From IMG/VR virus record IMGVR_UViG_3300025647_003907: a stretch of DNA of 64,000 bases. One strand, 5' to 3'. Shown here piece after piece: positions 39,070-58,831 of the stretch (its first letter is position 1; every line of letters begins with the position of its first letter). The DNA comes from an uncultured virus (IMG/VR IMGVR_UViG_3300025647_003907). Its lineage: Duplodnaviria; Heunggongvirae; Uroviricota; Caudoviricetes. The position numbers and the translations under genes were made by a program. The notes beneath the pieces were generated by a model. It was not told where the DNA came from. It ran no database searches and saw nothing but the letters and a program-made list of their open reading frames with translations.

Positions 39070-39087
39070 TTCAGTTAAGTAAACAAT

Positions 39088-42229: not shown

Positions 42230-43431
42230 ATCTGCCACACAATAAATTCTGTGTTCTCCCTTGGATTAGTCTAGAAACTAGTCCTATTGGTACTGTGCGC
42301 CCTTGTTGTTTGTACGACGGCGAAATACAAAATAGCCAGAGTGTAAAGTTTGATTTAAACAAAGATAACTTAAAAGATATTCAAAATTCGGACTATATGT
42401 ATCGACTTCGAGAAGCATTTTTACAAGGCGAACAACCTGCTGAGTGTAGACGTTGTTGGGCGGAAGAAGACGCTAACCGCACAAGCAAGCGCATGCACAC
42501 ACTAGCTCGCCTTAAGGATATGCTCAACGAAGAAACAGAATGGTCTTTAGATGCAAAGCCATTAATGTTTTTGGACTTAAAACTAGGAAACATTTGTAAT
42601 ATCGCATGTCGTATTTGCGGTTCGTGGTCTAGTTCTACTTACGCCGGGGAAGAAATTAAAGAATTACCTTTTGAAAAACGTAAAGAAAGTTTTGCGTATC
42701 AGATGAATCGACGAGGTAATTGGCCGCGTAAGAGTTTAACATTTTGGGACGATCTACACGAATACGCTTCTGGTATACGCTATATTGAATTTACTGGTGG
42801 CGAACCGTTTATGATCCAAGAGCATTTTGATTTCCTGCAATACCTAATCAATAATGATTATGCTAAGGATATTGAAATACACTATAACACTAACACAACA
42901 TTATACCCAGACGACGATACTATCTGGAAACCATTTAAACACGTTGAAGTAGCATTTAGTATTGATGATTTGCGCGAACGGTTTGAATATCAACGCTATG
43001 GTGCAGACTGGAAAACACTTAATAAAAATTTAGAACGCTTTAAAAAATTACGCGAACGTAGCAATAACATTTCACTACAAGTTTGTTCTACGGTAAATGT
43101 GTTTAACGTAATGTATTTAGAAGAACTTGCTAATTGGATAGACGAACAGGGGTTTAACTTTGTGTATTGGAATATGTTGCACGACGCTCCGCAGCATTGT
43201 GTAACTAGTTTACCTAAGTCGGCTAAACTGCGTGCAACAGAAAGATTGTTAAGTGCAGATGTTTCGTCTGCCCATAAAAAAGAATTTAAGAATATTGCAT
43301 TCTTTATGAACAGCCGAGATACAGAACCAGAGATACTGCGCGAAGATAGTTCACGCATGGACAAGCGCCGTAATCAATCTATGCGTGATTATTTGCCTGA
43401 GTTGGCAGAGTGTTTGTATGGAAAAACCTGA
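42226..43431 (+). CDS. N-terminal Twitch-domain radical SAM protein
   Basis: FCVLPW...RPCC...CRRCW, then CNIACRIC and TGGEP. Confidence 0.9.
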   Translation: MNLPHNKFCVLPWISLETSPIGTVRPCCLYDGEIQNSQSVKFDLNKDNLKDIQNSDYMYRLREAFLQGEQPAECRRCWAEEDANRTSKRMHTLARLKDMLNEETEWSLDAKPLMFLDLKLGNICNIACRICGSWSSSTYAGEEIKELPFEKRKESFAYQMNRRGNWPRKSLTFWDDLHEYASGIRYIEFTGGEPFMIQEHFDFLQYLINNDYAKDIEIHYNTNTTLYPDDDTIWKPFKHVEVAFSIDDLRERFEYQRYGADWKTLNKNLERFKKLRERSNNISLQVCSTVNVFNVMYLEELANWIDEQGFNFVYWNMLHDAPQHCVTSLPKSAKLRATERLLSADVSSAHKKEFKNIAFFMNSRDTEPEILREDSSRMDKRRNQSMRDYLPELAECLYGKT

Positions 43432-44746
43432 TTGCAAACCCGAATTTCTATGTCTCGCGCCTTGGACCCATACTTATTTGAGCCCGCAAAGCGAACGTAG
43501 ACTTTGTTGTGCAAGTCGCGAACCCGCACAAAATTTTACACAGTATATCGATACTGCTTCTGGCACTGGTAACTATAACCCTCTTACATTAGAAGAATGG
43601 TGGAACTCTGAGCATGTACGTGCGGTACGTGTTAAAATGATGCAGGGAGATATTCCAGATGAATGCCAAGTATGTAACCATAAACTATTAAACACAGACG
43701 TATACCGTAGTTATTTTTGGCACTTGTTCAAACACAAGTATGATCAGATATGGGAATCGACCGACGAAACTGGTCATACATCAATGAAACCAGTTAGCTG
43801 GGATTATCGTTTTTCAAATTTGTGTAATTTTAAATGTCGCATGTGTGGTGATATGCTGTCAAGTTCCTGGGAATCTGAGGAGAAGAAACATGAAATGTGG
43901 AACAAACAAGATCCTAAAAACAATTGGATGCTTCCTGAAATTCGTGAAAAAATTAATAACTTTCAACTTACCACCGTTAACAAAGAATTCTCAGATGCAG
44001 TAGAAGAAAATCGTGTTGAAGAAGTTTATTGGGTAGGCGGCGAACCATTAATGTTTGAAGAACACTGGAAGTTTATGAGTCGCATTGTTGAACTTGGGCA
44101 AGGACATCGAGTATATGCACGTTATAATACCAACTTATCACAAGTAAACTACAAGGGTTTAAGTTTATACAGAGATATTCTCGCACATCTAAGAGATTGG
44201 CAAATCTGCGCGAGTATAGACGGTACTGGTGCTGTTGGTGAATATATACGCACAGGATTAAAATGGGAACAGTTTTTACAAAACTACGAAGATGCACAGA
44301 AGATACAAACAAATGATCGCCAGATGCGACTAGATTTTACACTTACATTGCCGGGGTTGTTTGAAATAGAAAATATGTTCTGGTTAAGTAAGGAATTAAA
44401 TACACAGTTACTTGCAAAAGTTACATTTGCATTTAGCCCAGACATTGTAATGAGTCCTCTTGCGTTGCCTAGAAACATACTTGATCGTTATGTTTCATCT
44501 GTATTAGAAAAACTTAAACCACATGCTGACAGACACCAACAACCATTGATTGATGTCTTAGAACAACTACTGAATAGGCCTACGCTAGAACAGCAGTGGC
44601 CGGACGAATATGCAGCAGGCATGCGTAAAGGCAAAGCAAGAATTTTAAAATTAGAAAGTATTAGAACGCAACCTATTACAATGGCGGAAATATTAACGCA
44701 GGATCCAGAGATTTATGAGTGGTGGGAAAATATTAGACAAGATTGA
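43418..44746 (+). CDS. N-terminal Twitch-domain radical SAM protein
   Basis: LCLAPW...RLCC...CQVC, then CNFKCRMC and VGGEP. ATG at 43418 preferred over 43385. Confidence 0.9.
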   Translation: MEKPDCKPEFLCLAPWTHTYLSPQSERRLCCASREPAQNFTQYIDTASGTGNYNPLTLEEWWNSEHVRAVRVKMMQGDIPDECQVCNHKLLNTDVYRSYFWHLFKHKYDQIWESTDETGHTSMKPVSWDYRFSNLCNFKCRMCGDMLSSSWESEEKKHEMWNKQDPKNNWMLPEIREKINNFQLTTVNKEFSDAVEENRVEEVYWVGGEPLMFEEHWKFMSRIVELGQGHRVYARYNTNLSQVNYKGLSLYRDILAHLRDWQICASIDGTGAVGEYIRTGLKWEQFLQNYEDAQKIQTNDRQMRLDFTLTLPGLFEIENMFWLSKELNTQLLAKVTFAFSPDIVMSPLALPRNILDRYVSSVLEKLKPHADRHQQPLIDVLEQLLNRPTLEQQWPDEYAAGMRKGKARILKLESIRTQPITMAEILTQDPEIYEWWENIRQD

Positions 44747-45800: not shown

Positions 45801-45901
45801 TGAGTATTTTTAAAAGATTATGGAACAAGATTAAACTTGAAATCCGTTATAGAAAGAAACTAAAAGAATTACGTAAGCGCGACCCATTTATCTATAAATG
45901 A
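45800..45901 (+). CDS. 33-aa basic peptide, not in the ORF track
   Basis: MSIFKRLWNKIKLEIRYRKKLKELRKRDPFIYK. Its start overlaps the upstream stop (TAATG) and its stop overlaps the downstream start (ATGA). Confidence 0.8.
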   Translation: MSIFKRLWNKIKLEIRYRKKLKELRKRDPFIYK

Positions 45902-46653
45902 GCATTGTAATCGCAGGATACGGTTTTGTCGGGCATGCTGTTGCTGCTAAGTTTAGCAAACATATGGATGTTATTGTCGTTGACCCGAAACTTGGACCAG
46001 AAACAGCAGCAGATTATACTAGTGTCGATGGTGTAGTTGTTTGTGTTAACACACCTAGCGCAACAGATGGATCGTGCGATTATTCTAGAGTAGCACACGT
46101 ATTAGAAACTGTAGACAGCGCCATTCCTGTAGTAGTCAAATCAGCAGTAGATATTAACGGTGTATTTGCGTTAAAGAAACAATTCCCCAATCATCAGATT
46201 ACATATAGTCCGGAGTTTTTGCGTGCAGACACAGCAGACAGAGATTTTGCCACACAAGATTACGTAATACTAGGCGGCGGAGATCAGGACTTTTGGTTAA
46301 ATGTATGGACGCGGGCATTTCCTTATATCGAAGCACATTTAATCACAGATATCGAAGCAAGTTTAGTTAAGTATGCTGAAAATAGTTTTTTAGCAACTAA
46401 GGTAAGTTTCTTTAATCAACTCTATGACCTATGTGAAAATGTAGGAGCAGACTTTGAAAGTGTGCGTTATAGTTTGTGTAGAGATGAACGAATCAATCCT
46501 GACCATTCGTATGTTACAGCAGAACGTGGCTGGGGCGGACACTGCTTTCCTAAAGACACAACTGCAATGATTAAACAAGCACGTGAAGCTGGCGCGCCAT
46601 TTACAGTACTAGAACAAGCGTGCATATACAACAACAAGGTAAGAAATGGGTAA
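45898..46653 (+). CDS. ugd: UDP-glucose/GDP-mannose dehydrogenase family protein (short, 251 aa)
   Basis: GYGFVG Rossmann motif, CVNTP, YSPEFLR, KYAENSFLATKVSFFN, and GWGGHCFPKD with the catalytic Cys. Confidence 0.85.
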   Translation: MSIVIAGYGFVGHAVAAKFSKHMDVIVVDPKLGPETAADYTSVDGVVVCVNTPSATDGSCDYSRVAHVLETVDSAIPVVVKSAVDINGVFALKKQFPNHQITYSPEFLRADTADRDFATQDYVILGGGDQDFWLNVWTRAFPYIEAHLITDIEASLVKYAENSFLATKVSFFNQLYDLCENVGADFESVRYSLCRDERINPDHSYVTAERGWGGHCFPKDTTAMIKQAREAGAPFTVLEQACIYNNKVRNG

Positions 46654-48139
46654 CATACTAGGCATAAGTGCCGGATTTCACGATGCTGGAGTAAGCGTAG
46701 TTGATCCAGCAGGGAAAATTTTGTTTGCTGCCCATAGTGAACGATATAGTAAACAAAAACATGACGCAAACCTATGTTATGATATACTAGAAGAAGCAGC
46801 CAGTTATGGCGATATTGATACTGTAGCGTACTATGAAAACCATTGGCTAAAGAAACTGCGTCAATTCCGTTCCGGCGAACGTATTACGCAATGGGATTTC
46901 AGTTTACGTGACGTACTGTCAAGGCAATTTGTCGGGCACGAAAACTTATTATACAATAAAAAATTAAAGCAGTACACGCACCACAAGTCACATGCCGCAG
47001 CAGGATTTCAAACAAGTCCATATAGTGATGCTACAGTAGTTGTCATTGATGCCATCGGCGAGTTAGATACTGTTAGTATTTGGCATGCTAATTATAACGC
47101 TCACGGTAAAGCACAGTACAAAAAATTATGGACTATGCGTTATCCGCAGAGCATCGGTCTTTTTTATTCTGCGTTTACTCAGCGATGTGGATTACGTCCG
47201 CTAGATGAAGAATATATTTTAATGGGTATGGCCGGGTGGGGCAAGCCTTATTATACAAATGAAATATTAGATGAGTTTGTTGAAACATTAAACCCACCAA
47301 AGTTTAAGCATAATCTACATATTGGTACAGGTAAGTTTCTAGATGATGATGCTAACTTAGAAAATATTGCTGCGTCAACACAAGAAATTGCCGAAGCAAT
47401 GATTTATCATATTATGAGCAAGGCACGACAAATTGGATTCTCAGATAATCTTGTGTACATGGGAGGCGTAGCACTTAATTGTTTAGCAAATCGTAACCTA
47501 GGTAATTTTTATGAGAACATTTGGATTATGCCTAACCCAGGTGACGCTGGAAGTTCACTTGGCGCTGCTGCGTTAGCATATGGGGGTACTCTTGATTGGC
47601 ACGATGCTTTTCTTGGTACTGATATTCCAGGAGAATATCCAGTTAAGCCGTTATTAGACGAGCTATTATCTCGTAAGATCGTAGGTGTAGCTAGTGGCCG
47701 TGCTGAGTTTGGACCGCGTGCGTTAGGTAATAGAAGTTTATTAGCAGATCCAAGAGGTCCTGATATTAAAGATCGTGTAAACGACATTAAACGTAGGCAA
47801 CGTTTTCGCCCTTTTGCTCCTGTAATACTAGAAGAACACGCACATGAATATTTTGAAATGCCACCTGGATTTCAAACAAGTCCGTATATGCAAGTTATCG
47901 CACGCTGTACACGTCCAAAAGAATTCCCGGCTATTATTCATGTAGATGGAACTTCGCGTGTACAAACAGTCCCACAAGATGATTCAGGTATACGTAAATT
48001 GTTAGAAGCATGGTATCATTTAACAGGTTGTCCTATGTTGTTAAACACAAGTCTAAACATTCGCGGAGAACCAATGGTAAACAATCGTCGAGATGCTGAT
48101 CGTTTTGAACGCAAGTATAATGTTAAAGTTTGCTCGTGA
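46646..48139 (+). CDS. Carbamoyltransferase, NodU/CmcH/TobZ family
   Basis: LGISAGFHDA, HHKSHAA, VIDAIGE, GGVALNC, PGDAG, EFGPRALGNRS, RPFAP, HVDGTSRVQT, LNTSLN. Confidence 0.95.
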   Translation: MGNILGISAGFHDAGVSVVDPAGKILFAAHSERYSKQKHDANLCYDILEEAASYGDIDTVAYYENHWLKKLRQFRSGERITQWDFSLRDVLSRQFVGHENLLYNKKLKQYTHHKSHAAAGFQTSPYSDATVVVIDAIGELDTVSIWHANYNAHGKAQYKKLWTMRYPQSIGLFYSAFTQRCGLRPLDEEYILMGMAGWGKPYYTNEILDEFVETLNPPKFKHNLHIGTGKFLDDDANLENIAASTQEIAEAMIYHIMSKARQIGFSDNLVYMGGVALNCLANRNLGNFYENIWIMPNPGDAGSSLGAAALAYGGTLDWHDAFLGTDIPGEYPVKPLLDELLSRKIVGVASGRAEFGPRALGNRSLLADPRGPDIKDRVNDIKRRQRFRPFAPVILEEHAHEYFEMPPGFQTSPYMQVIARCTRPKEFPAIIHVDGTSRVQTVPQDDSGIRKLLEAWYHLTGCPMLLNTSLNIRGEPMVNNRRDADRFERKYNVKVCS

Positions 48140-48768
48140 AAGATTTAATTATAACCGGTGATAGTTTTTGTGCCAGCAACACAGGTTGGCCAGGAATGCT
48201 TGCTAAACAGTTAAATTTAAATTTGGTATCACAGGGGTTCCCAGGACATCATTGGTGGAAAGCAAAGCGTTATTTAGATAGCGTGGATACAAACAACGCA
48301 ACAGCAATCATTATTGTACACACAAACGCAACACGTATTCCAACAGAAGATTCAGCATTAGTAACGTTTGATCATTCACAAGAACCTACTAGCGAATTAG
48401 AACTAAGTGTTAAACTATATAACAAATATATTTTAAATTCGGAGTTCTTAGAATGGGCTCAACAACAATGGTTTATCGAACTAGAAACACGGTATGAGAA
48501 TGTAATTCATTTACATAGTTTTCCATGGAGTGTTGAATACGGAAAAAACGCACATAAAAACATAGAACAAAATTTGTGTGCGTTAAGTTTAAACGAACTA
48601 GGTGCTAAAGAATTTTCTTTATTCAACGATACAAGACTAAATCATTTAAATGAGTTTAACAATTTAACCTTAGCCAATCAATTAGCAGAAGTTATTCAGA
48701 ACGATAGACAACAGTTAGATACGCAGGAATTTGAAGCGTTAACTGATAAATGGTTCAAATGGCATTAA
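48136..48768 (+). CDS. SGNH/GDSL hydrolase-like protein
   Basis: N-terminal IITGDSF and C-terminal NH motif. GTG start overlaps the carbamoyltransferase TGA. Confidence 0.6.
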   Translation: MKDLIITGDSFCASNTGWPGMLAKQLNLNLVSQGFPGHHWWKAKRYLDSVDTNNATAIIIVHTNATRIPTEDSALVTFDHSQEPTSELELSVKLYNKYILNSEFLEWAQQQWFIELETRYENVIHLHSFPWSVEYGKNAHKNIEQNLCALSLNELGAKEFSLFNDTRLNHLNEFNNLTLANQLAEVIQNDRQQLDTQEFEALTDKWFKWH

Positions 48769-49810
48769 CACCATTGACTTCCCAGGTGCGTTTTCTGCCA
48801 CCGCAAGTTTGATTACATTGTAGTAGTCTTCCCTCTTCGTAAGTTGGAATACTCCAACTATCTACGATGCTTTTAAACCATTGGATACAATGATTTAGAT
48901 CATATTCAAGCGCATTATTTTCAAGCATTATGTTAGAAATTTGATTGTTAACCGCTTGCATAAATGTGCCTTTGCCAAATGTCCTGGGTTCATTGCCTAA
49001 GTAACAGCAAGGATATACGTCTCCTAGTGAACTAACATATATTGATTGATCGCGCATAACTTCGCAATCAACTGTATCGGCGATAGTATACTCAACGCTT
49101 CTAAAATCTATGTTGTTATTATAACTTTGAATAATTTCGTTAACAGTAGTAGTCGTTGACAGCCAATGATTTCTTTCATCACCTAAAAAATAAATTTGAT
49201 CGCCGTGTCTATTAAACACAGGTCCTGTGTCTCTTCCGTCCCAGACTGTAATAAAATCTTTAAATCCTAAATCATTTGCTAATTGTCTAGCTTCATTGAT
49301 CTGGTGTTCGTTGTGTTTAAACTTTACCCATTTCCATATTGCAGTTCCTCCTGCACCAATGAAATCATTTACATTGCGCATAATATGTGCAAAGTCTGTG
49401 TTTTGTCTATACAAATGATTTGTATCATCTAACCCATCGATACTGAAATAAACTTCAACACTTAGCTTTGCTAACGAAGTCCAAAAATCTGTATTTTGCG
49501 CACCTCCATTGGTGCTAATACTGATATTTAAATTGGGATTGTTTTCTCTAAAATATCGAACAATAGGAACAGTATTAGGATTAGCAACAGCATCACCAAA
49601 GTTACCATTAATAAGTAATTCATTAAGTTGTTTAATGAAAGATATTGAAAATATCTTTTGTGCTTCATCAACAGTCATATTGTGTTCAATATAACCATTG
49701 TTATAAGGGTATCCAAATGCCGTTCTTGGACATAACGAACAAGAAGCATTACATTTACTAGATATTTCTAGATGTACTTTGCGTATCTCAGAAAACTTAT
49801 AAGCAGCCAT
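48755..49810 (-). CDS. Radical SAM protein with a C-terminal SPASM/Twitch domain
   Basis: CNASCSLC, GNFGD, STNG, FSIDG; C-terminal C...GDVYPCC...CNQTC. The likely start MAAYKF at 49810 overlaps the upstream stop. Confidence 0.9.
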   Translation of the reverse strand: MAAYKFSEIRKVHLEISSKCNASCSLCPRTAFGYPYNNGYIEHNMTVDEAQKIFSISFIKQLNELLINGNFGDAVANPNTVPIVRYFRENNPNLNISISTNGGAQNTDFWTSLAKLSVEVYFSIDGLDDTNHLYRQNTDFAHIMRNVNDFIGAGGTAIWKWVKFKHNEHQINEARQLANDLGFKDFITVWDGRDTGPVFNRHGDQIYFLGDERNHWLSTTTTVNEIIQSYNNNIDFRSVEYTIADTVDCEVMRDQSIYVSSLGDVYPCCYLGNEPRTFGKGTFMQAVNNQISNIMLENNALEYDLNHCIQWFKSIVDSWSIPTYEEGRLLQCNQTCGGRKRTWEVNGVNAI

Positions 49811-50853
49811 TATAGATACGTTTCTAATCCGCCTCGCCGCCTGATATCTTGAGTACAACAGCTAACCCCGCCATCCCAAAAATATTGATGACGTAGTGAG
49901 CTAACAATAGGATTAATGCCGTGTTTTTCACAAAAATCAAATACAGTTTTATTTTCTGCACTAAACACAACATTCTGCTCATCTAACACCAAACAGTTAA
50001 CATCAAATACGGTTTCGTTAATATAACCTAACCAATGTGTTAGATAGTTGTTAACATAATCGCGGAATTGATCTGTTGGTCGATCGCCTTGCAAGTACCA
50101 GGATTCGTCTAGACGATTCTCTTCTTTAACACGACCAATCATTTGTGCAGCAATAATAGAACTGTCATTTAAGCGCAAGAAGTCCCAACCCGGAAACTCT
50201 GCTTCCAAGTTTAAATCATCTGCATGATAGGTGCTAAGAATAACACCGGGCTTTAGAATAGCAAACACAGCATCGCCATGCCCTTCGGTACGTGCTTCGT
50301 GAAAGCGATAGTCTTGATTATTTAATACATTTTCTTTAATCCAACCGCTTTGTGCTTCTGTTAAAAACTCAGAATTGTCAAAAAAGATATCACGTCCCAC
50401 ACGCACGATGCAGCTTGCTGAACCACCATTTAGAACGCAATTTTCATCATAGTGATCGCCGTGTGGGTTAATTATAATCCCTCCTTGTGCTTCGTAATCG
50501 TCACAAACATGATCCAGTTCATGCATGCGCAACACACGCAACAATTTATCGCCCAGTGTAATTTGCCAGTCTCTTGGAGTTAGCGGCGGCAGTGGCGCAC
50601 CACCGTGCTGCGTTTGCCAGGTGTAAAATTCATCTTGTGTGATCTTAAGTTCTGGACGACGAACTGTTGCTCCATAAGTTTCACAAACTTTTTGTAAGTT
50701 ATCTAAATCTTCTTCTGTTTCTGTGAGCACACGTTGCAATTGATTGCGCACAGCATCATCTTGAATAAACTCAAAATATTCCGGTGGATAACACCGACCT
50801 ACAATAACTTCTTCCAGTGGATCCCAGGACGTATAGGCATTAATTGGATTCAT
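49810..50853 (-). CDS. Second amidinotransferase (pentein fold)
   Basis: WDPLEEVIVG, PRD, GHGD, ETVFDVNCLVLD, WDGGVSCCT. Confidence 0.85.
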   Translation of the reverse strand: MNPINAYTSWDPLEEVIVGRCYPPEYFEFIQDDAVRNQLQRVLTETEEDLDNLQKVCETYGATVRRPELKITQDEFYTWQTQHGGAPLPPLTPRDWQITLGDKLLRVLRMHELDHVCDDYEAQGGIIINPHGDHYDENCVLNGGSASCIVRVGRDIFFDNSEFLTEAQSGWIKENVLNNQDYRFHEARTEGHGDAVFAILKPGVILSTYHADDLNLEAEFPGWDFLRLNDSSIIAAQMIGRVKEENRLDESWYLQGDRPTDQFRDYVNNYLTHWLGYINETVFDVNCLVLDEQNVVFSAENKTVFDFCEKHGINPIVSSLRHQYFWDGGVSCCTQDIRRRGGLETYL

Positions 50854-52048
50854 ATATATCTCTTAAAAGTGTTAGTATTCTATCTTTTTTATTTGACAAA
50901 AATAATTTTTGATTGTGAAGTAAATCATTCTTACAAGAAGTATAAACTTCACGTAACTGTTTGTTATTTAAGTTGATTAATGACAACGTTAAATTAATTG
51001 CAGCTTCCCAACGATCGGTAGTATCGGTAATATCATCATAACTGTTATTAATTATGCCTTCAAATGTACGATAACCCATGCGTCTTAATAAACGCAAACT
51101 CGATGGTCCACCAAAAATAACAAATGGTTGAGCATTTTTAATTGGCTTGAATGTTTTTTCAGTTAAAAATGCGCCGTGGCTTTGATCCACGTCCATGTGT
51201 GATTCTAATACAATGTTTAAATAGCTGCATCTAAAATGATCAGGATATGATAATGTATGATTGTTGTGCTGTACTACGCTTTGGTCATCGGCAACAAAAG
51301 GAACTTCCTTTAAAAATAGTCTTGTTAGTTCACGCAGATTTCCAAATTGATCTACTTCGATTGGATTGTCGTCTTCGGTTTCGTTGGCGGTTACTTCGCT
51401 GCTGTACCCAAAAAACCCTTGTTGATTGTTTCCGTGTTTCCAAATACGTGCCATGGTATTAGCACGCCAATATTTGTGCATGCGGACCAGTGCTGTAAAC
51501 TTTTTAGCACGATTACCTTCGTGATATTGTACAGGTTCAATTTTTCTATTACGAAAGTTATATAATAATTCATCATCAACCGCATGGAAGAAATAAGGAA
51601 TATCTCTGCAAGCACTGTTAGCACTAACAAAATATACTTGTTCTCGAGGTACATTCCAGTACTCGCATAATTCTGTTATTCTATCGTTAATGCGTTCTGG
51701 ATTATCACCTTCGCTATAATAAAATAACACACGCAATTTTTGATGACGTACTTGGTGTAAAACCAAATCGGGCATTAAATAAAACCAATCTACATCAAAA
51801 TCAAAGAAGCTAAGTGCAATAGGATAAAAAGTATTATTATCTGTTTTTTCTAAATCAACTAACTTATATGGAACATCCCAATAATCCATGTATTCAAATA
51901 ACATTACCGGCTCGGAATATGGCCATTTAGTGCTGAACTGCCTCCACTCAGTGGTAAATGGTTGAGCTTGGTGTTTGGCTAGATTAGGGTAGGGTTTTGT
52001 GAAACCTACTGCATTTTTGCCAATACGATCTACATAGAATTTATACAT
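50840..52048 (-). CDS. Putative GT-B glycosyltransferase-like protein (TEK motif)
   Basis: LNIVLES...FLTEKTFKPI...PFVIFG...GYRTF...SYD, similar to the GT10-like donor-binding motif. Confidence 0.5.
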   Translation of the reverse strand: MYKFYVDRIGKNAVGFTKPYPNLAKHQAQPFTTEWRQFSTKWPYSEPVMLFEYMDYWDVPYKLVDLEKTDNNTFYPIALSFFDFDVDWFYLMPDLVLHQVRHQKLRVLFYYSEGDNPERINDRITELCEYWNVPREQVYFVSANSACRDIPYFFHAVDDELLYNFRNRKIEPVQYHEGNRAKKFTALVRMHKYWRANTMARIWKHGNNQQGFFGYSSEVTANETEDDNPIEVDQFGNLRELTRLFLKEVPFVADDQSVVQHNNHTLSYPDHFRCSYLNIVLESHMDVDQSHGAFLTEKTFKPIKNAQPFVIFGGPSSLRLLRRMGYRTFEGIINNSYDDITDTTDRWEAAINLTLSLINLNNKQLREVYTSCKNDLLHNQKLFLSNKKDRILTLLRDIYESN

Positions 52049-53162
52049 AATCTTGTTTAATTTGTGCTAGCATGACTTTTAGTTCTTGCCATAATATCTG
52101 TTCGAAAGACCCATAGTAGAAATGGTTATAATTATATGTTGCAGCAGGAACACAATGTCGATAAATTTGTTGTTTTTCTCTAGCAGATAACCCTTCAATA
52201 TCCGTTAATAGTTTAGCAACTTTTTCTAATCTTGCAAAGTCATCTTCTTCGTCATCATAACTTTCATCGACGACATTGCCAAAAGTTTTAAATCCATATG
52301 AACGTAAGTATTCTAGACTATGTGCTGGTGCTACTAGTATAAACGGCATTTCTAGTGCAATTGGTTTAAATGTTTTTTCGGTTAGGTGTAGTCTTTTGCC
52401 CCAGTAGATAGTTTCGGTTGGTACATAAAACATACTATCTGCCGCTAGATCAAAGTTGTCCAACCAACAACTAGACATTTTTTGTGTATCCTCGCCTGCA
52501 AATGTAATTGGCAATTCTTCTGTTGCTAGCACAGGGGTAATATCTGGATACCTGTCTGTATATTTGGATGCAATGTGCGTAATATCTGTGTGTTCAACCG
52601 GACATGTTCTAGGAGCACTGATATGATTATGTTGCAAGTTATTTTTAAAGACATGATATAAGAATAATACTCTATGATCGCGATGCCCGCCAATGATACG
52701 ATTAGGACTTAAAAATGTTTTTTGTGGTTCGCGTTCCGCTGCACGATTTATTAAAAAGGTTCTATTATATCCACGATACCAATCCAATGCAGCCCAGCCG
52801 TGCCAAAAATAGTAATAGGACCTCCATCTATACTTTCCACAAAGATTTCTAACAAAATCTCCTTTTTCGGATACAACGATACCTCCTTGTGCTTTAATAT
52901 CGTAATTATTCGGCACAGGTTGAATATCGTCATTTCTTCTGACAACATCATCAAAAAGATCTTGATAGATATCAAAATGAACAGGTTCCTGATCGTGAAG
53001 GAAAATATAATCACTTTCTACGATGAAGTCTTCTCCGTGGTTAAATAAATTATTGATTCCGGTGTGTCCTGGTGGATCACAATAAAACATTCTTATACCA
53101 GGCAAATGCTCTTGCATCCAAGGCCAAAATGTGTTATTGTATAACTCATCAATTCTAATCAT
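52041..53162 (-). CDS. Putative GT-B glycosyltransferase-like protein (TEK motif), paralogue of the neighbouring gene
   Basis: VPTET...HLTEKTFKPI...PFIL...GFKTF...DESYD. Confidence 0.5.
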   Translation of the reverse strand: MIRIDELYNNTFWPWMQEHLPGIRMFYCDPPGHTGINNLFNHGEDFIVESDYIFLHDQEPVHFDIYQDLFDDVVRRNDDIQPVPNNYDIKAQGGIVVSEKGDFVRNLCGKYRWRSYYYFWHGWAALDWYRGYNRTFLINRAAEREPQKTFLSPNRIIGGHRDHRVLFLYHVFKNNLQHNHISAPRTCPVEHTDITHIASKYTDRYPDITPVLATEELPITFAGEDTQKMSSCWLDNFDLAADSMFYVPTETIYWGKRLHLTEKTFKPIALEMPFILVAPAHSLEYLRSYGFKTFGNVVDESYDDEEDDFARLEKVAKLLTDIEGLSAREKQQIYRHCVPAATYNYNHFYYGSFEQILWQELKVMLAQIKQDYV

Positions 53163-53170
53163 AATTTATA

Positions 53171-55204
53171 ATGTTTGACGTATTTTATATAGGTAAAAAA
53201 CCAAATCAGTTTGCTCACGAACGTGAAGTAAAAACCATTGATGAAGCACGAGCGTTAAGTCGCACTAGATACTTTTGGATTATACATTACTTATGTGATT
53301 ACACGGGCTTTGATTTTCTTTGGGAACCTAAGCCTTGGGAATCACACCAACGACATGTGTATGCAAGTCAGTGGAACAAAGATTCTGGTACTTGCTTGTG
53401 TCCTAAGGAAGGTTATACTGACACCCAATATCATGCTGGAATGATTGCTGTCCGCAAGACATCTACAGAACACTGGGATCACACAGACGTAGAAGGATTT
53501 GACTATAGTTGGCACCCAGATGATACAGAAGGCCCGCACATATACCAGTTTGGCACACAGTGGCAAAAGACCGGAGGCCCACGTTATGTAATTCCCGGTG
53601 CAACAGTAGTGAAGTATGTTCGTGAAAATCGTATTACAAAAACAACAGTAGATGATAATTGGGTTATTCCCAATAATGTTGAGATTGACGGCTTTGACTA
53701 TACTTGGCATCCAGATGCAACAGAACCAGCATATGATTATCAATTTGGCACACAGTGGCAAAAAACCGGCGGACCTTTATATAAAATTGAAGGCGCAACT
53801 GCAACAAAGTATGTAACTCAAGAACGTGTTAAAAGTATTAGTGTAACCAAAGATGTTTATCTAATAGATCACGGAAACCCAGAAACAGAAACAGTTAAAA
53901 AGCAGCTAGAATCTAAAGGGCTGGTAGTTAAAAAAATTGCTCGTTTTATTAGTTCGTATAAAGGAACATTACAACGTATACTATCTCGTGAAGAACGCGA
54001 CTATGTTTGGATATGCTCAAGTGTATGCGACTACTCTAACTTTGATTTTTCTTGGCATCCTGAATTATGGCAAGGCACGATGCTACACGTTTTTCCAAGC
54101 AATAACGAGAAGTTTGGTGACACCTTTCTAGTAAACACATCGACATTTAATGCCCGCATTACCCAAGTCGAGTTACTTGAATGGTACGATACCATTCATT
54201 TTGTAGACAACATATCTGTACCTCGCTGGCCAGTCGAAACTGTGCAATATAATGATGACACAATGGTTAGTGCAGTTTGGAATCATGAGTTTTCTAGTCC
54301 AATTGCATATTTTTATAAAAATACAGTACCTGATAATTTGCCAACTGTTAATTTGTGGAGAGAAAAAACAAAAACTGTTATTTCGCTTAAAAAAGATAAT
54401 TCAGCAGCAGTTATACCAAGAGAGTGTAAAAACCACCTAAAAACGCAGGTTTATGATTACCCGTTTTTAGATAAAACATATAGTGGTACACTAGAATCTC
54501 AACTACAAGATATTGTGTATATTTCATACGATGAGCCAGAATCAGAAAAGAATTACGAAAAACTGCTCTCTAGGTTTCCTAATGTAAAACGTGTACACGG
54601 CGTAAAAGGAATGGAAAATGCATTAATTGCTGCCGCTAACGAAAGTAGCACGCCGTGGTATTTTGCAGTGTTTGCTAAAACCGAATTAGAAGAAACATTT
54701 AAATTTGACTTCGTTCCAGACTATTTCCAAACTCCAAAACATTATATTTTTAATTGTCGCAACCGCGTAAATGGATTAGAGTACGGACATATGGGAGTTA
54801 TTCTTTATAACTGTAATATGGTTAAAAATGGTCCGGGCTATTACAACAACAATAATGCTATGAGCCTAGACTATACAATTTCTTTTCCTACGGAATCAAT
54901 ACCGTTGTTAAGTTGCCATGGGAATTTTGACACAAGTCCATACCATACTTGGCGCACAAGTTTTAGAGAAGTAGCAAAACTTAGTTATTTTGAATCTGTG
55001 GATCCAACAATGGATAACCAATATAGATTGAAAATATGGACGACTCGGGCTAATGGTCCATACGCCCAGTGGGCATTAAATGGTGCAAACGACGGCATTG
55101 AGTTCTTTAACGAAAGTGGCGGCGATCTAAGTTATATGAAGCAAAGCTTCAGTTGGGATTGGCTACGAGATCGATTCGTTACGAAATACGGGAAAATTGA
55201 ATAG
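53171..55204 (+). CDS. Multidomain glycosyltransferase-like protein with internal repeats
   Basis: The C-terminal DIVYISYDEP...VHGVKG...NGLEYG...TWRTSFREVAK domain is homologous to 35555..36478. FD[FY]xWxP motifs are repeated upstream. Confidence 0.6.
   Translation: MFDVFYIGKKPNQFAHEREVKTIDEARALSRTRYFWIIHYLCDYTGFDFLWEPKPWESHQRHVYASQWNKDSGTCLCPKEGYTDTQYHAGMIAVRKTSTEHWDHTDVEGFDYSWHPDDTEGPHIYQFGTQWQKTGGPRYVIPGATVVKYVRENRITKTTVDDNWVIPNNVEIDGFDYTWHPDATEPAYDYQFGTQWQKTGGPLYKIEGATATKYVTQERVKSISVTKDVYLIDHGNPETETVKKQLESKGLVVKKIARFISSYKGTLQRILSREERDYVWICSSVCDYSNFDFSWHPELWQGTMLHVFPSNNEKFGDTFLVNTSTFNARITQVELLEWYDTIHFVDNISVPRWPVETVQYNDDTMVSAVWNHEFSSPIAYFYKNTVPDNLPTVNLWREKTKTVISLKKDNSAAVIPRECKNHLKTQVYDYPFLDKTYSGTLESQLQDIVYISYDEPESEKNYEKLLSRFPNVKRVHGVKGMENALIAAANESSTPWYFAVFAKTELEETFKFDFVPDYFQTPKHYIFNCRNRVNGLEYGHMGVILYNCNMVKNGPGYYNNNNAMSLDYTISFPTESIPLLSCHGNFDTSPYHTWRTSFREVAKLSYFESVDPTMDNQYRLKIWTTRANGPYAQWALNGANDGIEFFNESGGDLSYMKQSFSWDWLRDRFVTKYGKIE
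53490..53830 (+). repeat. Tandem 195-nt (65-aa) intragenic duplication
   Basis: GFDY[ST]WHPD.TE....YQFGTQWQKTGGP occurs twice. The 20-mer tttggcacacagtggcaaaa is identical at 53549 and 53744. Confidence 0.9.
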
Positions 55205-56582
55205 GCCCGTCGTTAATGCCAACCCCATAGGAGATATTGTCTCGATACTGATTAATCATAATACTAGCTGTGTGATCAAATGCATCCAGATAGCCAGTAT
55301 CGCCGGGACGCGGTGTAATAGTATTTCCAGACTCTACCCAATTACGACAAACTTCATCTAAACTTTTATCTTTTATATTGCCAATGATATAACGTTCTGC
55401 GCCCGATCGACCAACAAATCCGGATTCGTGGTACAGATAAACATCGGACTTAACGTCAACGCAGACGTTTACCTGCGGGAATCCAGTACGGACCATGTCA
55501 TGGAAGTTAACCATTTGTAGAGGACCGCTAACATGATTGTAACGCAAACTATCTAACGCATACCCATAGTCAAAGTGTACATCTTTTAGTAAAGAATCTG
55601 CACTACAAATTTTATCTACTTCTTTTAATATGCCAATTAACTTTTCACGTTCTTCATTAGTTATCGACACCAGAGACTGTGAGTGGTCTTCGCGTATAGT
55701 ACAGAACGCAATACGCTTGTCGGTTTGACGGTGAATGCTTCTAATATAATCCAAGAAACCATAAATCTCATTCGTCTTACCGGGCAATAGAATATAATTT
55801 AAGCCTATATTGGTTTTGTTTAACTCGGGACGGTTTAAGAAGTTAGCGATGTTATCTCGGACAGTTGTGTATGCCTTATCGTTTTGTGTAACAGCAAATG
55901 TACTCTTTTGATCTACACCGTAGATACTAAAGCGTAGCGCACCTAGGTCAAATATGCCTGGGTTGTCGTTACAATAACGATCGCTTAACAAGTAGCCGTT
56001 TGTGTACAACTGTACATTGTAGCCCTGTTCTGCACCGTGGGTGATAATATTATTAGTAAGTGGGTTAGTGAGAGGTTCGACACCGCCTGAAATACGCAAT
56101 CGATTGCGCCAGTTCCAATCTGTTTTTGGATCCTCGTCGATCATACGTTTAAACATTGTAAACGATTCGTCTGCTAGTTTGCGATCATACTTTTCATTAT
56201 AGTTGCGTCCGCAAAAGTTACAGTAGAACATACAAGAGAAGCCTGTGTATAATCCAATGCGTTCTGGATACGAGTATTCGTTTAGTATGCTTGCTTGTAT
56301 TTTGCCTGTAGCAAACAATGGAAGCACAGTATTTTTATAATACTTTTTACCAATACCTGAGTTCTGTATGTAATCTTGTAATACTTCGTCGTTGCGGATA
56401 ACAGTGTTTAAGTCTAACAAATCCTGCTTGCTAATACCAAGCCATTCTGCTGCTTCGCGCTGCTTAACAAAAGGATTGTGCGATAACATAGTTGCATACT
56501 CTCGCAGAGTTGTGTTATCGTAACCGTCAAGTGTGCCACGATGCTCTTCTAATGTATTATGGTATGAATATCCAAAGTTCAT
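55179..56582 (-). CDS. desII: DesII-like radical SAM NDP-4-amino-4,6-dideoxyhexose ammonia-lyase
   Basis: Co-linear motifs recalled from Streptomyces DesII: Y.KNT.LPL, GLY.G..CMF.C.FC.R, SGG.EPLTNP, YTN, S.YG, IRED.S, DYGYAL.SLR, PQV...VD...DVYLY.E.GF...RYI.G, D.FD. Confidence 0.85.
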   Translation of the reverse strand: MNFGYSYHNTLEEHRGTLDGYDNTTLREYATMLSHNPFVKQREAAEWLGISKQDLLDLNTVIRNDEVLQDYIQNSGIGKKYYKNTVLPLFATGKIQASILNEYSYPERIGLYTGFSCMFYCNFCGRNYNEKYDRKLADESFTMFKRMIDEDPKTDWNWRNRLRISGGVEPLTNPLTNNIITHGAEQGYNVQLYTNGYLLSDRYCNDNPGIFDLGALRFSIYGVDQKSTFAVTQNDKAYTTVRDNIANFLNRPELNKTNIGLNYILLPGKTNEIYGFLDYIRSIHRQTDKRIAFCTIREDHSQSLVSITNEEREKLIGILKEVDKICSADSLLKDVHFDYGYALDSLRYNHVSGPLQMVNFHDMVRTGFPQVNVCVDVKSDVYLYHESGFVGRSGAERYIIGNIKDKSLDEVCRNWVESGNTITPRPGDTGYLDAFDHTASIMINQYRDNISYGVGINDGPIQFSRIS

Positions 56583-57694
56583 TTAAATGAGTTTATGCTA
56601 TCTACGATATATTGAACTTGATCATCTGTTAATGAATACCAGCTTGGAATACTTAATATTTCTTTAACAGCAAGCTCTGCATTAGGGCATTCCTGGTACC
56701 ATTCTTTATATGCTGGTTGTGTATTAGTAGTAGTTGCATACTGAATATTTGTTTCAATGTCTAACTCTGCTAGGTGTTGTTTAAGTTCATCGCGACGATT
56801 GCTGCGAATAACATACCCATAATATGTATGATCATTGCCTGGTTCTAGTACAGGAACATCAACAGTGACCAATTGCTCAGTATAATAGTTACAAATTTTT
56901 CGTTTACGTTTGAGCCAAGTATTTAAGTAAGGAAGTTTTGTACGAACAATATTTGCTTGCATATTGTCAATGCGAGCATTATAACCTATGCGTTCATATG
57001 AATAACGATTACTGCGTCCGTGATCTCTGTACATGCGCACAAGTTCTATGTTTGACTCAGACCCTAATACACATCCTGCATCTCCCATTGCGCCTAAATT
57101 TTTAACTGGGTTAAAACTAACACAGGTATAATCTGCCGGCAAAGATCCAACCGTGCGACCTTTATAACGATTACCAAAGGACTGTGCTGCGTCCTCAATT
57201 AATACAAGATTATATTCATTGCATATATTGCGTAAACGATCAACATCTGGACATTGACCGTATAAGTCAACAAACAGAATCGCACGAGTGCGCTTTGTGA
57301 TATATTGTTCAATTTTATCTATATTGATTAGATATGTTTTAGGGTCAATATCGACAAATATTGGAACCGCGCCCACAGATGCTATTGATTCTGTGGTAGC
57401 AACAAATGTCATTGGTGTAGTAATAACTTCGTCTTTATAGCCAATTCCTGCTGCCTGCAAAGAACACGCCAATGCAGTAGTGCCAGATCCTGTAGACGCA
57501 CATGCTTCTGCCCCTGTGTATTCGCATAGTGCTGATTCAAATGAGGTAACGTACGGTCCGGTGATAAATTGAGATGTAGCAATAGTCTCTTCGATTGCCC
57601 GATCGATCTCCCATTTACAATCAATATATTGTTGATATAAATTAGTGTAGGGAATTTTGAATCCACTCATAATACAGTGGGAATCCTTGTTCAA
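56579..57694 (-). CDS. DegT/DnrJ/EryC1/StrS family PLP-dependent sugar aminotransferase
   Basis: SGTTAL, TFVAT, IEDAAQ, SFNPVKNLGAMGDAG (PLP lysine), GYNARID. The real start may be the internal MSGFKIP. Confidence 0.95.
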   Translation of the reverse strand: MNKDSHCIMSGFKIPYTNLYQQYIDCKWEIDRAIEETIATSQFITGPYVTSFESALCEYTGAEACASTGSGTTALACSLQAAGIGYKDEVITTPMTFVATTESIASVGAVPIFVDIDPKTYLINIDKIEQYITKRTRAILFVDLYGQCPDVDRLRNICNEYNLVLIEDAAQSFGNRYKGRTVGSLPADYTCVSFNPVKNLGAMGDAGCVLGSESNIELVRMYRDHGRSNRYSYERIGYNARIDNMQANIVRTKLPYLNTWLKRKRKICNYYTEQLVTVDVPVLEPGNDHTYYGYVIRSNRRDELKQHLAELDIETNIQYATTTNTQPAYKEWYQECPNAELAVKEILSIPSWYSLTDDQVQYIVDSINSFK

Positions 57695-58592
57695 TGTTGG
57701 TGTGTGGTTCGTAATTTAACAAGCGATATGCTTTTTCGGTACTTAGATATCCACGACTGGGCATGCTCATGTCGCGCTCGCATACATTAATCTCGCCCTT
57801 ACCTACAATATCGCGCACAAGTTTAGCAGCACGCAGAATAGTATCTTCTTCGCCGCGTGTAATATTAAATGTTTCGTCAGCAGCAAGAACATGAGTAGCA
57901 GCAAGCACAATACCGTGTGCTACATCTTCTACAAACGAAAAGTCTAGTTTTTCATCTACTCCGTTTACGTTAAGCGGCTTGTCCTGTAGTGCATTCATAA
58001 AAAACTTACTAACAACACGATCTTCTACGTCACGTGGTCCATATACAGCACTTGGGCGTACAATTGAATATTCCATGTTGTGCTTTGCTGCAACGTGTTT
58101 GGTTAATAATTCACCTGCGTGCTTGTATGCAGCATAAATGCTGCCAGGTTTGCACGTGGCGTCTTCTGTAACACCGCCTGTAAAGTCACCGTATACCATG
58201 CTGCTGCTAATATACACAAACCGCTTAACACCTACATCGACACTGGATGTTAATAGATTTTCAAGTCCGTCAATCATGGTATGACGAGCGGTTAGTGGAT
58301 CTGTGTTTACAATTTTAGCACGCGGGAAACTTGCTAAGTGAATAACCACTTCTGGTTGATGTCGTTCAAATGATGTTTTAATATGTGCGGCACTAGCAAT
58401 ATCCCAAGGACATAAAGTAGGATGCCCCATATAATTAATACGCTCATCAATAAGCGTCATGTGCTGCTTGGGGTCTAGAATTCCATAGGTAGTCCAGTTA
58501 TCTAAAACAACACATGTATGTCCTTGATCTTGTAATTCTTTTACTACGTGATGCCCAATAAATCCAGCACCGCCGACTACCATTATTCGCAT
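57642..58592 (-). CDS. NAD-dependent NDP-sugar epimerase/dehydratase (extended SDR)
   Basis: GGAGFIG, HLAS, SSSMVYG, YAAYK (YxxxK), RPSAVYGP, DFSFVEDVA. Confidence 0.9.
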   Translation of the reverse strand: MRIMVVGGAGFIGHHVVKELQDQGHTCVVLDNWTTYGILDPKQHMTLIDERINYMGHPTLCPWDIASAAHIKTSFERHQPEVVIHLASFPRAKIVNTDPLTARHTMIDGLENLLTSSVDVGVKRFVYISSSMVYGDFTGGVTEDATCKPGSIYAAYKHAGELLTKHVAAKHNMEYSIVRPSAVYGPRDVEDRVVSKFFMNALQDKPLNVNGVDEKLDFSFVEDVAHGIVLAATHVLAADETFNITRGEEDTILRAAKLVRDIVGKGEINVCERDMSMPSRGYLSTEKAYRLLNYEPHTNIEQGFPLYYEWIQNSLH

Positions 58593-58594
58593 TT

Positions 58595-58831
58595 TTATCC
58601 CCAGCGTAATTGAAAATAAGTCGCAGCAGCATCGTCGACTTCTGCTTCAACTATTATATGATACCCCCAGGTGGTACCGTCATTTTGTATACTATAACGT
58701 AAATTTTGACTATTGTCAAGAACCCATTTTCCTTGCTCGCACCCTTTAAGTTTTGAGTCTATGATCATAGGCATTACTAAATGTGGTTCTTCAACATCGC
58801 CTACGTCAAAGTCAAAGACTCGTATACGCAT
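58595..58831 (-). CDS. Small hypothetical phage protein
   Basis: 78 aa ending AATYFQLRWG; coupled to the thyA stop. Confidence 0.65.
   Translation of the reverse strand: MRIRVFDFDVGDVEEPHLVMPMIIDSKLKGCEQGKWVLDNSQNLRYSIQNDGTTWGYHIIVEAEVDDAAATYFQLRWG

Follow-up and report, generated by a model that had tools for sequence, protein, structure and literature searches.

A DesII-family radical SAM gene appears to occupy the slot of a sugar dehydrogenase in an amino-sugar cassette of a large phage

Introduction

What use might a phage have for a relative of DesII, encoded beside a sugar aminotransferase and an SDR? DesII is the model enzyme for asking what steers a radical reaction towards elimination or oxidation; to our knowledge, the only characterised member of its family is the actinobacterial deaminase. 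Our literature and database searches found no characterised viral DesII, in agreement with the initial annotation of this locus. That annotation interpreted the cassette along the lines of desosamine synthesis, with the aminotransferase as the source of a 4-amino sugar. Here we analyse the 64-kb stretch of DNA, from a large freshwater phage, that holds the cassette (the window) together with related loci in phages and cells. On our best reading a DesII relative sits in a dehydrogenase slot, and the cassette is therefore probably a radical route to the aminotransferase's keto-sugar and not a copy of the desosamine pathway.

Results

The SDR, aminotransferase and radical SAM genes are three overlapping reading frames, all on the minus strand and just where the initial annotation had placed them; the five DesII motifs and the SSSMVYG string that it quoted are all in the translations. 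The genes discussed here are the following.

45898-46653, plus strand: short UDP-glucose/GDP-mannose 6-dehydrogenase, 251 aa (PF00984, PF03721)
46646-48139, plus strand: carbamoyltransferase of the NodU/CmcH type (PF02543, PF16861)
50840-52048, minus strand: conserved 402-aa protein, paralogue of the 373-aa protein (common C-terminal region)
52041-53162, minus strand: conserved 373-aa protein, weak GT-B-like fold as a lead only (model pLDDT 86)
53171-55204, plus strand: 677-aa protein, degenerate repeats at the N-terminus and a GT-A-like domain at the C-terminus (about 54434-55204)
55179-56582, minus strand: DesII-family radical SAM enzyme, 467 aa, proposed 3-keto NDP-sugar generator (TIGR04426, 8HZV)
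56579-57670, minus strand: DegT/DnrJ/EryC1/StrS aminotransferase, predicted C3 type, 363 aa from the ATG at 57670 (PF01041, 341 bits)
57642-58592, minus strand: extended SDR, 316 aa, with GxxGxxG, SSSMVYG and YxxxK (PF01370, 151 bits)

In an ATGA, the start codon of the radical SAM gene overlaps the stop codon of the aminotransferase gene. At its other end the aminotransferase frame has an alternative start, a TTG at 57694 (56579-57694, 371 aa), the 363-aa start being the more likely. A six-frame profile search of the 64-kb window found a single DegT gene and a single extended SDR of the kinds listed, in line with the initial remark that the product may be something other than desosamine, and no Gfo/Idh/MocA gene; a profile search and tree placed no C4 or DesI-type aminotransferase in the window. 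PHROG matches to baseplate and head-closure proteins identify the phage as a large myophage, with a baseplate wedge 31-35% identical to those of GAP32/Atu_ph07-type jumbo phages. Contigs from public freshwater runs, which may include the source sample, span the cassette junctions with no differences (X4, 55306-57873; X1, 55350-57431; X6, 56349-57882).

The radical SAM protein is a full-length DesII homologue, with a likeness far above chance. The DesII equivalog model TIGR04426 matches residues 24-455 at 328.6 bits (E 6e-98), below its curated cut-off of 450 bits (the S. narbonensis control L089 reaches 823 bits), and PDB 8HZV matches residues 29-448 (E 1.4e-67), which bears out the whole-length likeness initially claimed. 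The protein thus lies inside the wider DesII family and outside its actinobacterial clade: that clade (45 rows, support 100, FastTree) leaves it out, and placing it inside was rejected (AU p 5e-76; 44 rows, LG+G4, quick search). By the measure that the initial annotation set for itself, its place relative to the DesII clade, this counts half against that annotation. Comparison with two close relatives gives dN/dS of about 0.04 and 0.09, and the gene is under purifying selection. The CxxxCxxC, GGE, ribose (R238/S240/Y242) and beta-6 (D323/Y324) motifs of DesII are kept, the sole change being Y324 to H300, as are these active-site features.

56211-56234, minus strand: CxxxCxxC cluster motif, C117/C121/C124, equivalent to DesII C141/C145/C148
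55425-55427, minus strand: E386, equivalent to DesII E408, the proposed general base (E in 21 of 21 phage-group rows)
55284-55286, minus strand: D433, equivalent to DesII D456 (D456A is inactive; D in 110 of 110 rows)

Known reactions of DesII are oxidation of TDP-quinovose at C3, which uses E408, and at least partial dehydration of TDP-D-fucose (PMC11434129). Conservation of E408 and D456 is compatible with a dehydrogenase and a lyase outcome alike. Two DesII positions near the active site have changed in a phage-specific, invariant manner, Y184 to R and R407 to H (21 of 21 phage-group rows). Together with the many other uncharacterised radical SAM genes in the cluster, these changes could be taken to mean that the enzyme acts on a sugar that is not free, for example one already on DNA or protein, or independently of the aminotransferase. 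This seems very unlikely to us, as 24 of 25 phage groups have an aminotransferase directly beside the radical SAM gene (the remaining one is a 1.9-kb contig) and 44 alignment columns are common to all four groups of the DesII family.

The cassette's single aminotransferase is predicted, from its closest relatives, to be of the C3 type (QdtB/WbpE/DesV-like). Among solved structures it scores 254.5 bits with QdtB, which we take to be a C3 aminotransferase, 232.6 with WbpE and 209.8 with DesV, against 150.1, 111.6 and 94.1 bits with the C4-like PerA, ArnB and 2PO3. By published classes it reaches 200-233 bits with three C3-class enzymes and 77-150 with five C4-class ones, two classes that share one fold and are hard to distinguish (PMC7725333). 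Its PLP lysine (codon 57101-57103, minus strand) is invariant. The DesI model TIGR04427 gives it 141.5 bits against a cut-off of 650, and it falls outside the 35-row DesI clade, so that the supply of a 4-amino sugar by this enzyme, as initially supposed, found no backing.

In full, that initial order would have the SDR or a host dehydratase make a 4-keto sugar, the aminotransferase act at C4 and the radical SAM enzyme deaminate, the 3-keto-4-deoxy product being reduced, used directly or re-aminated by the same aminotransferase. The order SDR-aminotransferase-radical SAM does match desI-desII (a DesI-motif gene lies near 35 of the 45 actinobacterial loci), the blurred line between C3 and C4 enzymes leaves room for it, and the top NCBIfam score of the aminotransferase is for PseC (210 against a cut-off of 423.5), with no C3 model among the matches. 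We nonetheless judge it distinctly unlikely: the best solved relatives and the DesI tree speak against it, as do orthologues of the aminotransferase partnered with a Gfo dehydrogenase and an SDR that lacks the dehydratase Asp/Glu.

RmlB-type 4,6-dehydratases carry a catalytic Thr-Asp-Glu motif. In the SDR, SSS stands at that place and is invariant in 10 of 10 orthologues; the protein also scores far under every NCBIfam SDR cut-off (RmlB, TIGR01181, 108 against 365 bits; GalE, 96 against 262). An RmlB-type identity was thus rejected, as the initial annotation had suspected. Its best solved matches are 4-epimerases (E 1e-27 to 1e-24), followed by UDP-glucuronate decarboxylase, and it has epimerase-type Ser/Thr and YxxxK catalytic residues. 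The SDR is most likely a 4-epimerase-type enzyme on these comparisons, and probably a self-contained epimerase rather than the supplier of a 4-keto-6-deoxy sugar. Since no cassette enzyme removes the C6 oxygen, the '4,6-dideoxy' hexose named initially is unsupported, and removal of the C4 oxygen is just one possible outcome.

The SDR is a common gene of this phage clade and not DesII-specific. At least 574 viral contigs carry it; of the 80 best, 1 has a DesII-like gene next to it, so the three genes are not one unit. It is equally present in Gfo cassettes, and 32 of the best 80 SDR loci have no aminotransferase; therefore it is not tied to the radical enzyme.

The evidence that carries our proposal comes from the position of the radical SAM gene. 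Among 52 viral loci with a window-type aminotransferase, the next gene is Gfo/Idh/MocA in 37 and a DesII-like gene lies beside the aminotransferase in 3; no locus has both, and 12 have neither (6 of which stop at a contig edge); the 37 closest matches of an independent Gfo scan (47 loci) were the same 37 contigs. Conversely, Gfo was found in 0 of the 25 groups of DesII-like phage loci, PF01408 in 0 of 4 DesII-phage records (55-99% complete) and the DesII profile in 0 of 8 Gfo-phage records (35-91% complete), the positive control working in both searches. The two genes are thus mutually exclusive in these phage loci. The window aminotransferase is 57-62% identical to the Gfo-partnered ones and sister to seven of them (SH-aLRT 98-100), and a single clade for all DesII-partnered aminotransferases was rejected (AU p 1.6e-5). 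The nearest outside relatives of the radical SAM gene (L290-L293, 61-66%) lie upstream of a different aminotransferase. The best NCBIfam model for the phage Gfo is UDP-GlcNAc 3-dehydrogenase (89.8 bits, cut-off 450). The best reading is that the radical SAM gene displaced the Gfo gene in the same slot; the same slot is not proof of the same product.

A true DesII-type deaminase would turn a 4-amino sugar from outside the cassette into a 3-keto-4-deoxy sugar, which the aminotransferase, acting as DesV, would convert to a desosamine-like 3-amino-3,4-dideoxy product; the 4-amino sugar could come from the host, from mini-DegT or from a C4 aminotransferase elsewhere in the phage genome. Every DesII catalytic feature is kept, and 11 of 25 groups carry two aminotransferases around the radical SAM gene. 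None of the 37 Gfo loci has the additional one, AT1, as would be expected of a 4-amino donor for a deaminase. In G022, a relative with a single aminotransferase in the cassette, a DesI/VioA-like one is encoded about 20 kb away, L018 and L309 have an ArnB-like one next door, and GDP-mannose 4,6-dehydratase is found elsewhere in G002 and G003. Mini-DegT (196-267 aa) carries the PLP lysine motif and is present at other places in both DesII and Gfo phages. On the other side, the window holds no C4 aminotransferase, and it and its two closest relatives are among the 7 of 25 groups with no second full-length aminotransferase beside the gene. In the near-complete G002 and G003 the aminotransferases are AT1, AT2 and mini-DegT alone, and the best solved relatives of AT1 are also C3-type. 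Moreover, a single-gene swap into the Gfo slot would need a new substrate supply. We regard deamination as rather unlikely.

Alternatively, the SDR might make a C4 galacto sugar (axial OH) from which the radical SAM enzyme removes water, giving a 4-deoxy-3-keto sugar for amination at C3; no amino intermediate would be needed, and the swap would turn a 3-amino glycan into a 3-amino-4-deoxy one. The epimerase-like SDR and the partial dehydration of TDP-D-fucose by DesII agree with this, and so do cellular homologues. Outside the actinobacteria these have an oxidoreductase partner (Gfo in 19 of 25 loci examined) and an aminotransferase nearby in 1 of 35, a layout like that of AprD4 with its partner AprD3; this pairing fits a lyase with a 3-ketoreductase better than a dehydrogenase. 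The spread of the SDR over Gfo cassettes and aminotransferase-free loci weighs against radical dehydration, as does the DesII barrier computed for a gluco substrate, much higher for dehydration than for oxidation. It is, in our view, unlikely.

The flanking genes suggest a use for the sugar. The gene for the 677-aa GT-A-like protein and the radical SAM gene are convergent, overlapping by 26 nt, and the two are adjacent or within two genes of each other in every related phage locus long enough to show it. The model of the 677-aa protein (pLDDT 82) has GT-A enzymes as top Foldseek matches (E 4e-5, probability 1.0, TM just 0.44); the protein had no sequence-profile match in PDB or Pfam, and the Atlas gave PF00535 as a fairly confident lead. 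This protein probably consumes the cassette sugar. For the 373-aa protein Foldseek returned nothing at E<=0.001, its best rows being GT-B enzymes (E 1e-3 to 1e-2, TM about 0.35); the 402-aa paralogue (34% over 98 aa, E 1e-11) matched nothing in Pfam, NCBIfam or PHROG. The 6-dehydrogenase (TIGR03026, 139.5 against 189.8) is possibly a WbpA-like step upstream, linked to the cassette by inference only, and the carbamoyltransferase, whose gene recurs near the cassette in relatives, a possible sugar tailoring step.

Discussion

From the observed homologies, active-site conservation, gene orders, Gfo exclusion, aminotransferase nesting and purifying selection we infer a pathway whose regiochemistry, substrate, step order, dehydrogenase outcome and acceptor are proposals. 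We propose that the radical SAM gene took the slot of a Gfo/Idh/MocA NAD-dependent 3-dehydrogenase that is paired with the same aminotransferase in sister phages, and that its product precedes the aminotransferase in the pathway. In a DesII-like step, SAM would be cleaved and the C3 hydrogen of a nucleotide sugar abstracted, releasing a 3-keto sugar; the PLP aminotransferase would next place an amine on C3, and the adjacent GT-A enzyme(s) could transfer the 3-amino sugar to a virion protein, DNA or the host surface. That the radical enzyme first makes a 3-keto sugar, which is then aminated, is quite likely across the dehydrogenase reading and the two lyase rivals. If the radical SAM gene did displace a 3-dehydrogenase in place, dehydrogenation is the simplest chemistry: oxidation at C3 of a sugar whose 4-OH is equatorial, the second activity of DesII, would give the product of the lost dehydrogenase. 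We favour this outcome tentatively.

The matched natural cassettes, with the same SDR, aminotransferase and glycosyltransferase and either Gfo or a DesII-family enzyme, make the choice between elimination and oxidation testable side by side. If dehydrogenation is correct, a DesII side reaction would be a native function; if a lyase reading is, these phages would make 4-deoxy amino sugars. In the unlikely case that this jumbo-phage clade varies its glycans between 3-amino (NAD dehydrogenase) and 3-amino-4-deoxy (a DesII-family enzyme, captured more than once, dehydrating an SDR-epimerised hexose), this would be the first natural DesII-family dehydratase and a viral route to C4-deoxy amino sugars without DesI, and would account for the homologues fused to an oxidoreductase in SAR11 and other bacteria. 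Under either reading, the database name 'ammonia-lyase' for the phage proteins is putative, and a widespread aquatic phage clade would appear to tailor rare amino sugars.

The phage enzyme resembles DesII of Streptomyces venezuelae (TIGR04426; 8HZV/8HZY) in its full length, single cluster, GGE, ribose and beta-6 motifs, E408 and D456, and differs from it in its identity (about 34%), score under the family cut-off, separate clade, R at Y184, H at R407 and viral host. Like the desosamine system it has a DesV-like C3 aminotransferase beside the radical SAM gene; unlike that system, with its DesI and DesV, the cassette has no DesI, 4,6-dehydratase or DesVI-like methyltransferase. WbpA/WbpB/WbpE and GnnA/GnnB combine an NAD-dependent C3 dehydrogenase with a PLP C3 aminotransferase (PMC10622841, PMC5644692). 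The phages share with the former a WbpE-like aminotransferase, a Gfo gene beside it in sister phages and a 6-dehydrogenase gene 9 kb away, whereas the window has a radical SAM enzyme in the dehydrogenase slot and no WbpD-like acetyltransferase was seen. The product of BtrN passes to a DegT-family aminotransferase, and other pathways carry out the BtrN oxidation with an NAD enzyme. BtrN, the radical SAM dehydrogenase of butirosin synthesis (PMC9012708), performs a two-electron alcohol oxidation like that predicted here; it has a twitch domain, an auxiliary cluster and a cyclitol substrate, whereas the phage protein belongs to the DesII family and lacks an auxiliary cluster motif. The uncharacterised Gfo/Idh/MocA-DesII fusions and pairs of Pelagibacteraceae and other environmental bacteria share the radical SAM family, a surface-glycan context and the lack of an adjacent DesI; there the oxidoreductase occurs together with the radical enzyme, whereas in the phages the two are mutually exclusive and the partner is an aminotransferase. 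Finally, known viral glycosylation, including mycobacteriophage virion glycans, phage DNA glycosylation and the core glycosyltransferases of moraphages (PMC12619734, whose main text mentions neither radical SAM nor aminotransferase), offers a fitting context for a large phage with several conserved glycosyltransferases and sugar-tailoring genes of its own.

Results

The three overlapping minus-strand ORFs of the cassette, with the sequence motifs quoted for them in the initial annotation, were all found in the window, which is part of a large myophage. Its first portion (1-33.5 kb) is full of structural genes, and its baseplate wedge is 31-35% identical to those of GAP32/Atu_ph07-type jumbo phages. 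Five twitch radical SAM genes lie in a tailoring cluster at 34.6-58.6 kb, together with genes for a 6-dehydrogenase and a carbamoyltransferase. The metagenome runs that contain most of the window are from freshwater, with one estuarine, and their contigs cross the cassette junctions without change. Features outside the cassette are as follows:

12816-28121, + strand, 5101-aa ORF in the virion module
34647-35558 and 48755-49858, further radical SAM genes, identified by family profile search
36491-37654, + strand, match to phrog_25854
37654-44746, + strand, five tandem twitch radical SAM genes (NF033640, 297-396 bits against a cut-off of 170)
49810-50853, - strand, second match to phrog_25854

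By eye, from its motifs and without a family match, the product of the 49810-50853 gene resembles an amidinotransferase-fold protein, and amidino tailoring beside the carbamoyltransferase is possible. In some relatives (L187, L207, L225 and L227) twitch genes interrupt the SDR-AT1 pair, AT1 being an extra divergent aminotransferase; there they could be a source of keto-sugar for AT1. An ORF of fewer than 80 codons (58597-58831, - strand) apparently lies between thyA and the SDR gene and includes a near-consensus sigma-70 site (58691-58719). We do not claim this site (TTGACA-17-TATAGT, 58719-58691) as a promoter, since 22 such sites were found against 22.4 expected by chance. Summed contig depth was higher over thyA, the SDR and the glycosyltransferase gene than over the aminotransferase-radical SAM pair, as would be expected of strains lacking this module; since genes cannot be ranked by contig depth, this reading was not used.

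The radical SAM protein matched the DesII model TIGR04426 at 328.6 bits, below its cut-off of 450, and the DesII structure 8HZV over residues 29-448 (E 1.4e-67). It retains DesII residues C141/145/148, G187/G188/E190, R238/S240/Y242, D323, E408 and D456, with Y324 replaced by His. Once seven distant rows had been removed, the D456 equivalent was invariant in 110/110 grouped rows, all 21 phage-group rows carried Arg for Y184 and His for R407, and sequence comparison of the grouped rows found no residue separating lyase from dehydrogenase. The phage proteins fall outside the actinobacterial DesII clade (153 rows, FastTree), and a single clade made up of the window's group plus six rows from actinobacteria was rejected (AU p 5e-76; 44 rows, quick tree). 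Taken together, the retained residues, the sub-cut-off score and the trees describe a protein that, judged by sequence, is DesII-like in its cluster, SAM site and catalytic acids but falls outside the curated family. Its dN/dS is ~0.04 and ~0.09 against two close relatives, with dS near saturation. The fusion ('FUS') labels on GC-rich actinobacterial tree rows were mostly upstream-start artefacts.

Among phages, a shortened DesII-like form (~400 aa, without the N-terminal helical part) makes up its own clade, loci L012-L017; the aminotransferase adjoining the short gene of L017 has an internal stop. Loci L018 (1326-5787), L327 and L309 each hold two DesII-like genes. Those of L018 (497 and 412 aa) flank an ArnB-like aminotransferase and a sulfotransferase, and the two pieces in L309 may be one split gene.

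The desosamine logic, in which the cassette aminotransferase would act as DesI, was not supported: the protein scored 141.5 bits against a DesI cut-off of 650, and in a quick tree it lies outside the 35-row DesI clade, whose support is 100. The top named solved-structure matches were QdtB (254.5 bits), which we take to be a C3 aminotransferase, WbpE (232.6), 2OGA (209.8) and 5U1Z (199.9); lower scores went to PerA (150.1), 4ZTC (113.2), ArnB (111.6), 2PO3, presumably DesI (94.1), 2FNI (92.8) and WecE (77.2). According to one study, 2OGA/DesV, WbpE and 5U1Z/WlaRG act at C3, and ArnB, PseC, PerA and WecE, along with PglE, at C4 (PMC7725333). In actinobacteria, a gene with the DesI motif lies within 8 kb of desII at 35 of 45 loci.

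That the SDR is not of the RmlB type was borne out, the dehydratase Asp/Glu being absent; the Ser and YxxxK of extended SDRs are present, and the best solved matches are 4-epimerases. The SDR is encoded on at least 574 viral contigs. At the best 80 of these loci, some of them short, AT1 was found 45 times, no aminotransferase 32 times, the window-type aminotransferase twice and a DesII-like gene once. Given these counts, the SDR is a fixture of the clade and can do without an aminotransferase, in keeping with an epimerase.

The two SDR loci with a window-type aminotransferase have the order SDR-aminotransferase-Gfo/Idh/MocA oxidoreductase (Gfo)-glycosyltransferase. A viral scan with a single aminotransferase sequence gave no match; an alignment-based scan used instead yielded 52 viral loci, with Gfo next door at 37 (~25 distinct at 90% identity), a DesII-like gene at 3, both at 0 and neither at 12, 6 of which were at a contig edge. 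An independent Gfo scan returned 47 loci, the 37 closest being the same contigs, matched by name. Conversely, none of the 25 groups of DesII-like phage loci (95% identity) had a Gfo gene. With positive controls, PF01408 was found in 0/4 DesII-phage records (55-99% complete) and the DesII profile in 0/8 Gfo-phage records (35-91% complete). Phage counts omit L019-L029, which are filed as viral, have 28-33% GC, do not share the synteny of these phages and group mostly with Pelagibacteraceae. In SAR11 surface-glycan islands (these loci and L032-L077, Pelagibacteraceae), DesII-like genes travel with a short Gfo protein, often also with a DAO-family FAD oxidoreductase, and some of these genes are fused to one another.

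The aminotransferases of the window and its close relatives L288 and L289 are sister to seven Gfo-partnered ones (57-62% identity). A single clade of DesII-partnered aminotransferases was rejected (AU p 1.6e-5), and the tree implies three changes. The next relatives of the radical SAM gene, in L290-L293 (61-66%), precede a different aminotransferase. An economical history, as read from the sequences, would have the radical SAM gene alone move into the Gfo slot, a move that may have happened a second time in L013-L015; its direction is taken from the nesting seen in quick trees with DesV as the root. By gene position, the phage DesII branch paired with a C3 aminotransferase is interchangeable with an NAD-dependent oxidoreductase.

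A GT-A-like fold is predicted (structure model and Foldseek) for the C-terminal domain of the 677-aa protein, whose gene converges on the cassette, and two paralogous neighbour genes gave weak GT-B leads. The N-terminal part of the 677-aa protein (53171-54430, + strand) shows degenerate repetition (41% over 53 aa) with faint matches to the profile of the C-terminal domain, and protein length among relatives varies from 428 to ~1200 aa. A separate locus in relatives holds a GalE-like SDR gene and genes that we read, from N-terminal sequences, as deazaguanine genes like queE/queD/folE; DNA modification may therefore be encoded elsewhere than in the cassette. In related phages this region also contains mini-DegT, a short DegT-like protein of 196-234 aa with a PLP lysine motif (L147:6443-7144, L149:7159-7767, L151:5791-6378, L416:6046-7158); in virus record G022 a full-length DesI/VioA-like aminotransferase takes its position.

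Discussion

The known DesII reactions (4-amino sugar deamination, TDP-quinovose oxidation and partial TDP-fucose dehydration) all begin at C3-H and yield a 3-keto sugar (PMC11434129). Since all three would feed a C3 aminotransferase, the radical SAM enzyme probably acts first. For the chemistry itself we tentatively favour C3 oxidation, at slightly short of an even chance for the window's cassette, because a 4-amino donor is missing next to it and the genes downstream would keep their substrate. Radical SAM alcohol oxidation has a precedent in BtrN (PMC9012708).

Several observations speak against oxidation. If AT1 is a C4 enzyme, the groups carrying it would have full desosamine-like paths, and AT1 is present in 11/25 DesII-like groups against 0/37 Gfo loci. 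Its 12 solved matches at E<=1e-20 take in QdtB, DesV, WbpE and WlaRG, and the five C4 enzymes named above are all missing from them, but AT1 is divergent. Further candidate donors are the DesI/VioA-like aminotransferase ~20 kb off in G022, whose DesII-like locus has no AT1, the ArnB-like neighbour in L018 (276.9 bits), a close relative of it in L309, and mini-DegT, found in both DesII and Gfo phages. Cellular homologues favour a lyase as the general role of the family: outside DesI clusters they accompany an oxidoreductase, with Gfo fusions in 15 of the best 30 cellular representatives scanned and Gfo fused or adjacent in 19/25 cellular loci examined, and an aminotransferase is nearby in just 1/35 non-actinobacterial genomes.

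The earlier interpretation is supported in part: its DesII-like kinship stands, and its desosamine logic is unsupported. DesII-like genes recur in many uncultured phages, where we infer their function, and number 0 among 50,697 GenBank phage records. Among the publications listed on DesII and radical SAM enzymes, none was viral by title and abstract opening, in a search that left out most subscription journals, and those pairing DesII with phage were unrelated. A study of large aquatic phages describes core glycosyltransferases, in a main text without radical SAM or aminotransferase genes (PMC12619734).

The natural exchange of Gfo and DesII-like genes makes the lyase-versus-dehydrogenase question of DesII directly testable. 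For the phage Gfo, the best NCBIfam model is UDP-GlcNAc 3-dehydrogenase, under its cut-off. A PDB profile search assigned it to no characterised dehydrogenase or reductase; matches spanned many families (E 1e-19 to 1e-6), including a sugar 3-ketoreductase and 7BVJ, which we take to be GnnA, itself presumably of the Gfo family like WbpB. In WbpB/WbpE and GnnA/GnnB units, according to two papers, NAD-dependent C3 oxidation precedes transamination (PMC10622841, PMC5644692), and the Gfo and C3 aminotransferase genes of the sister phages share the layout of such a unit.
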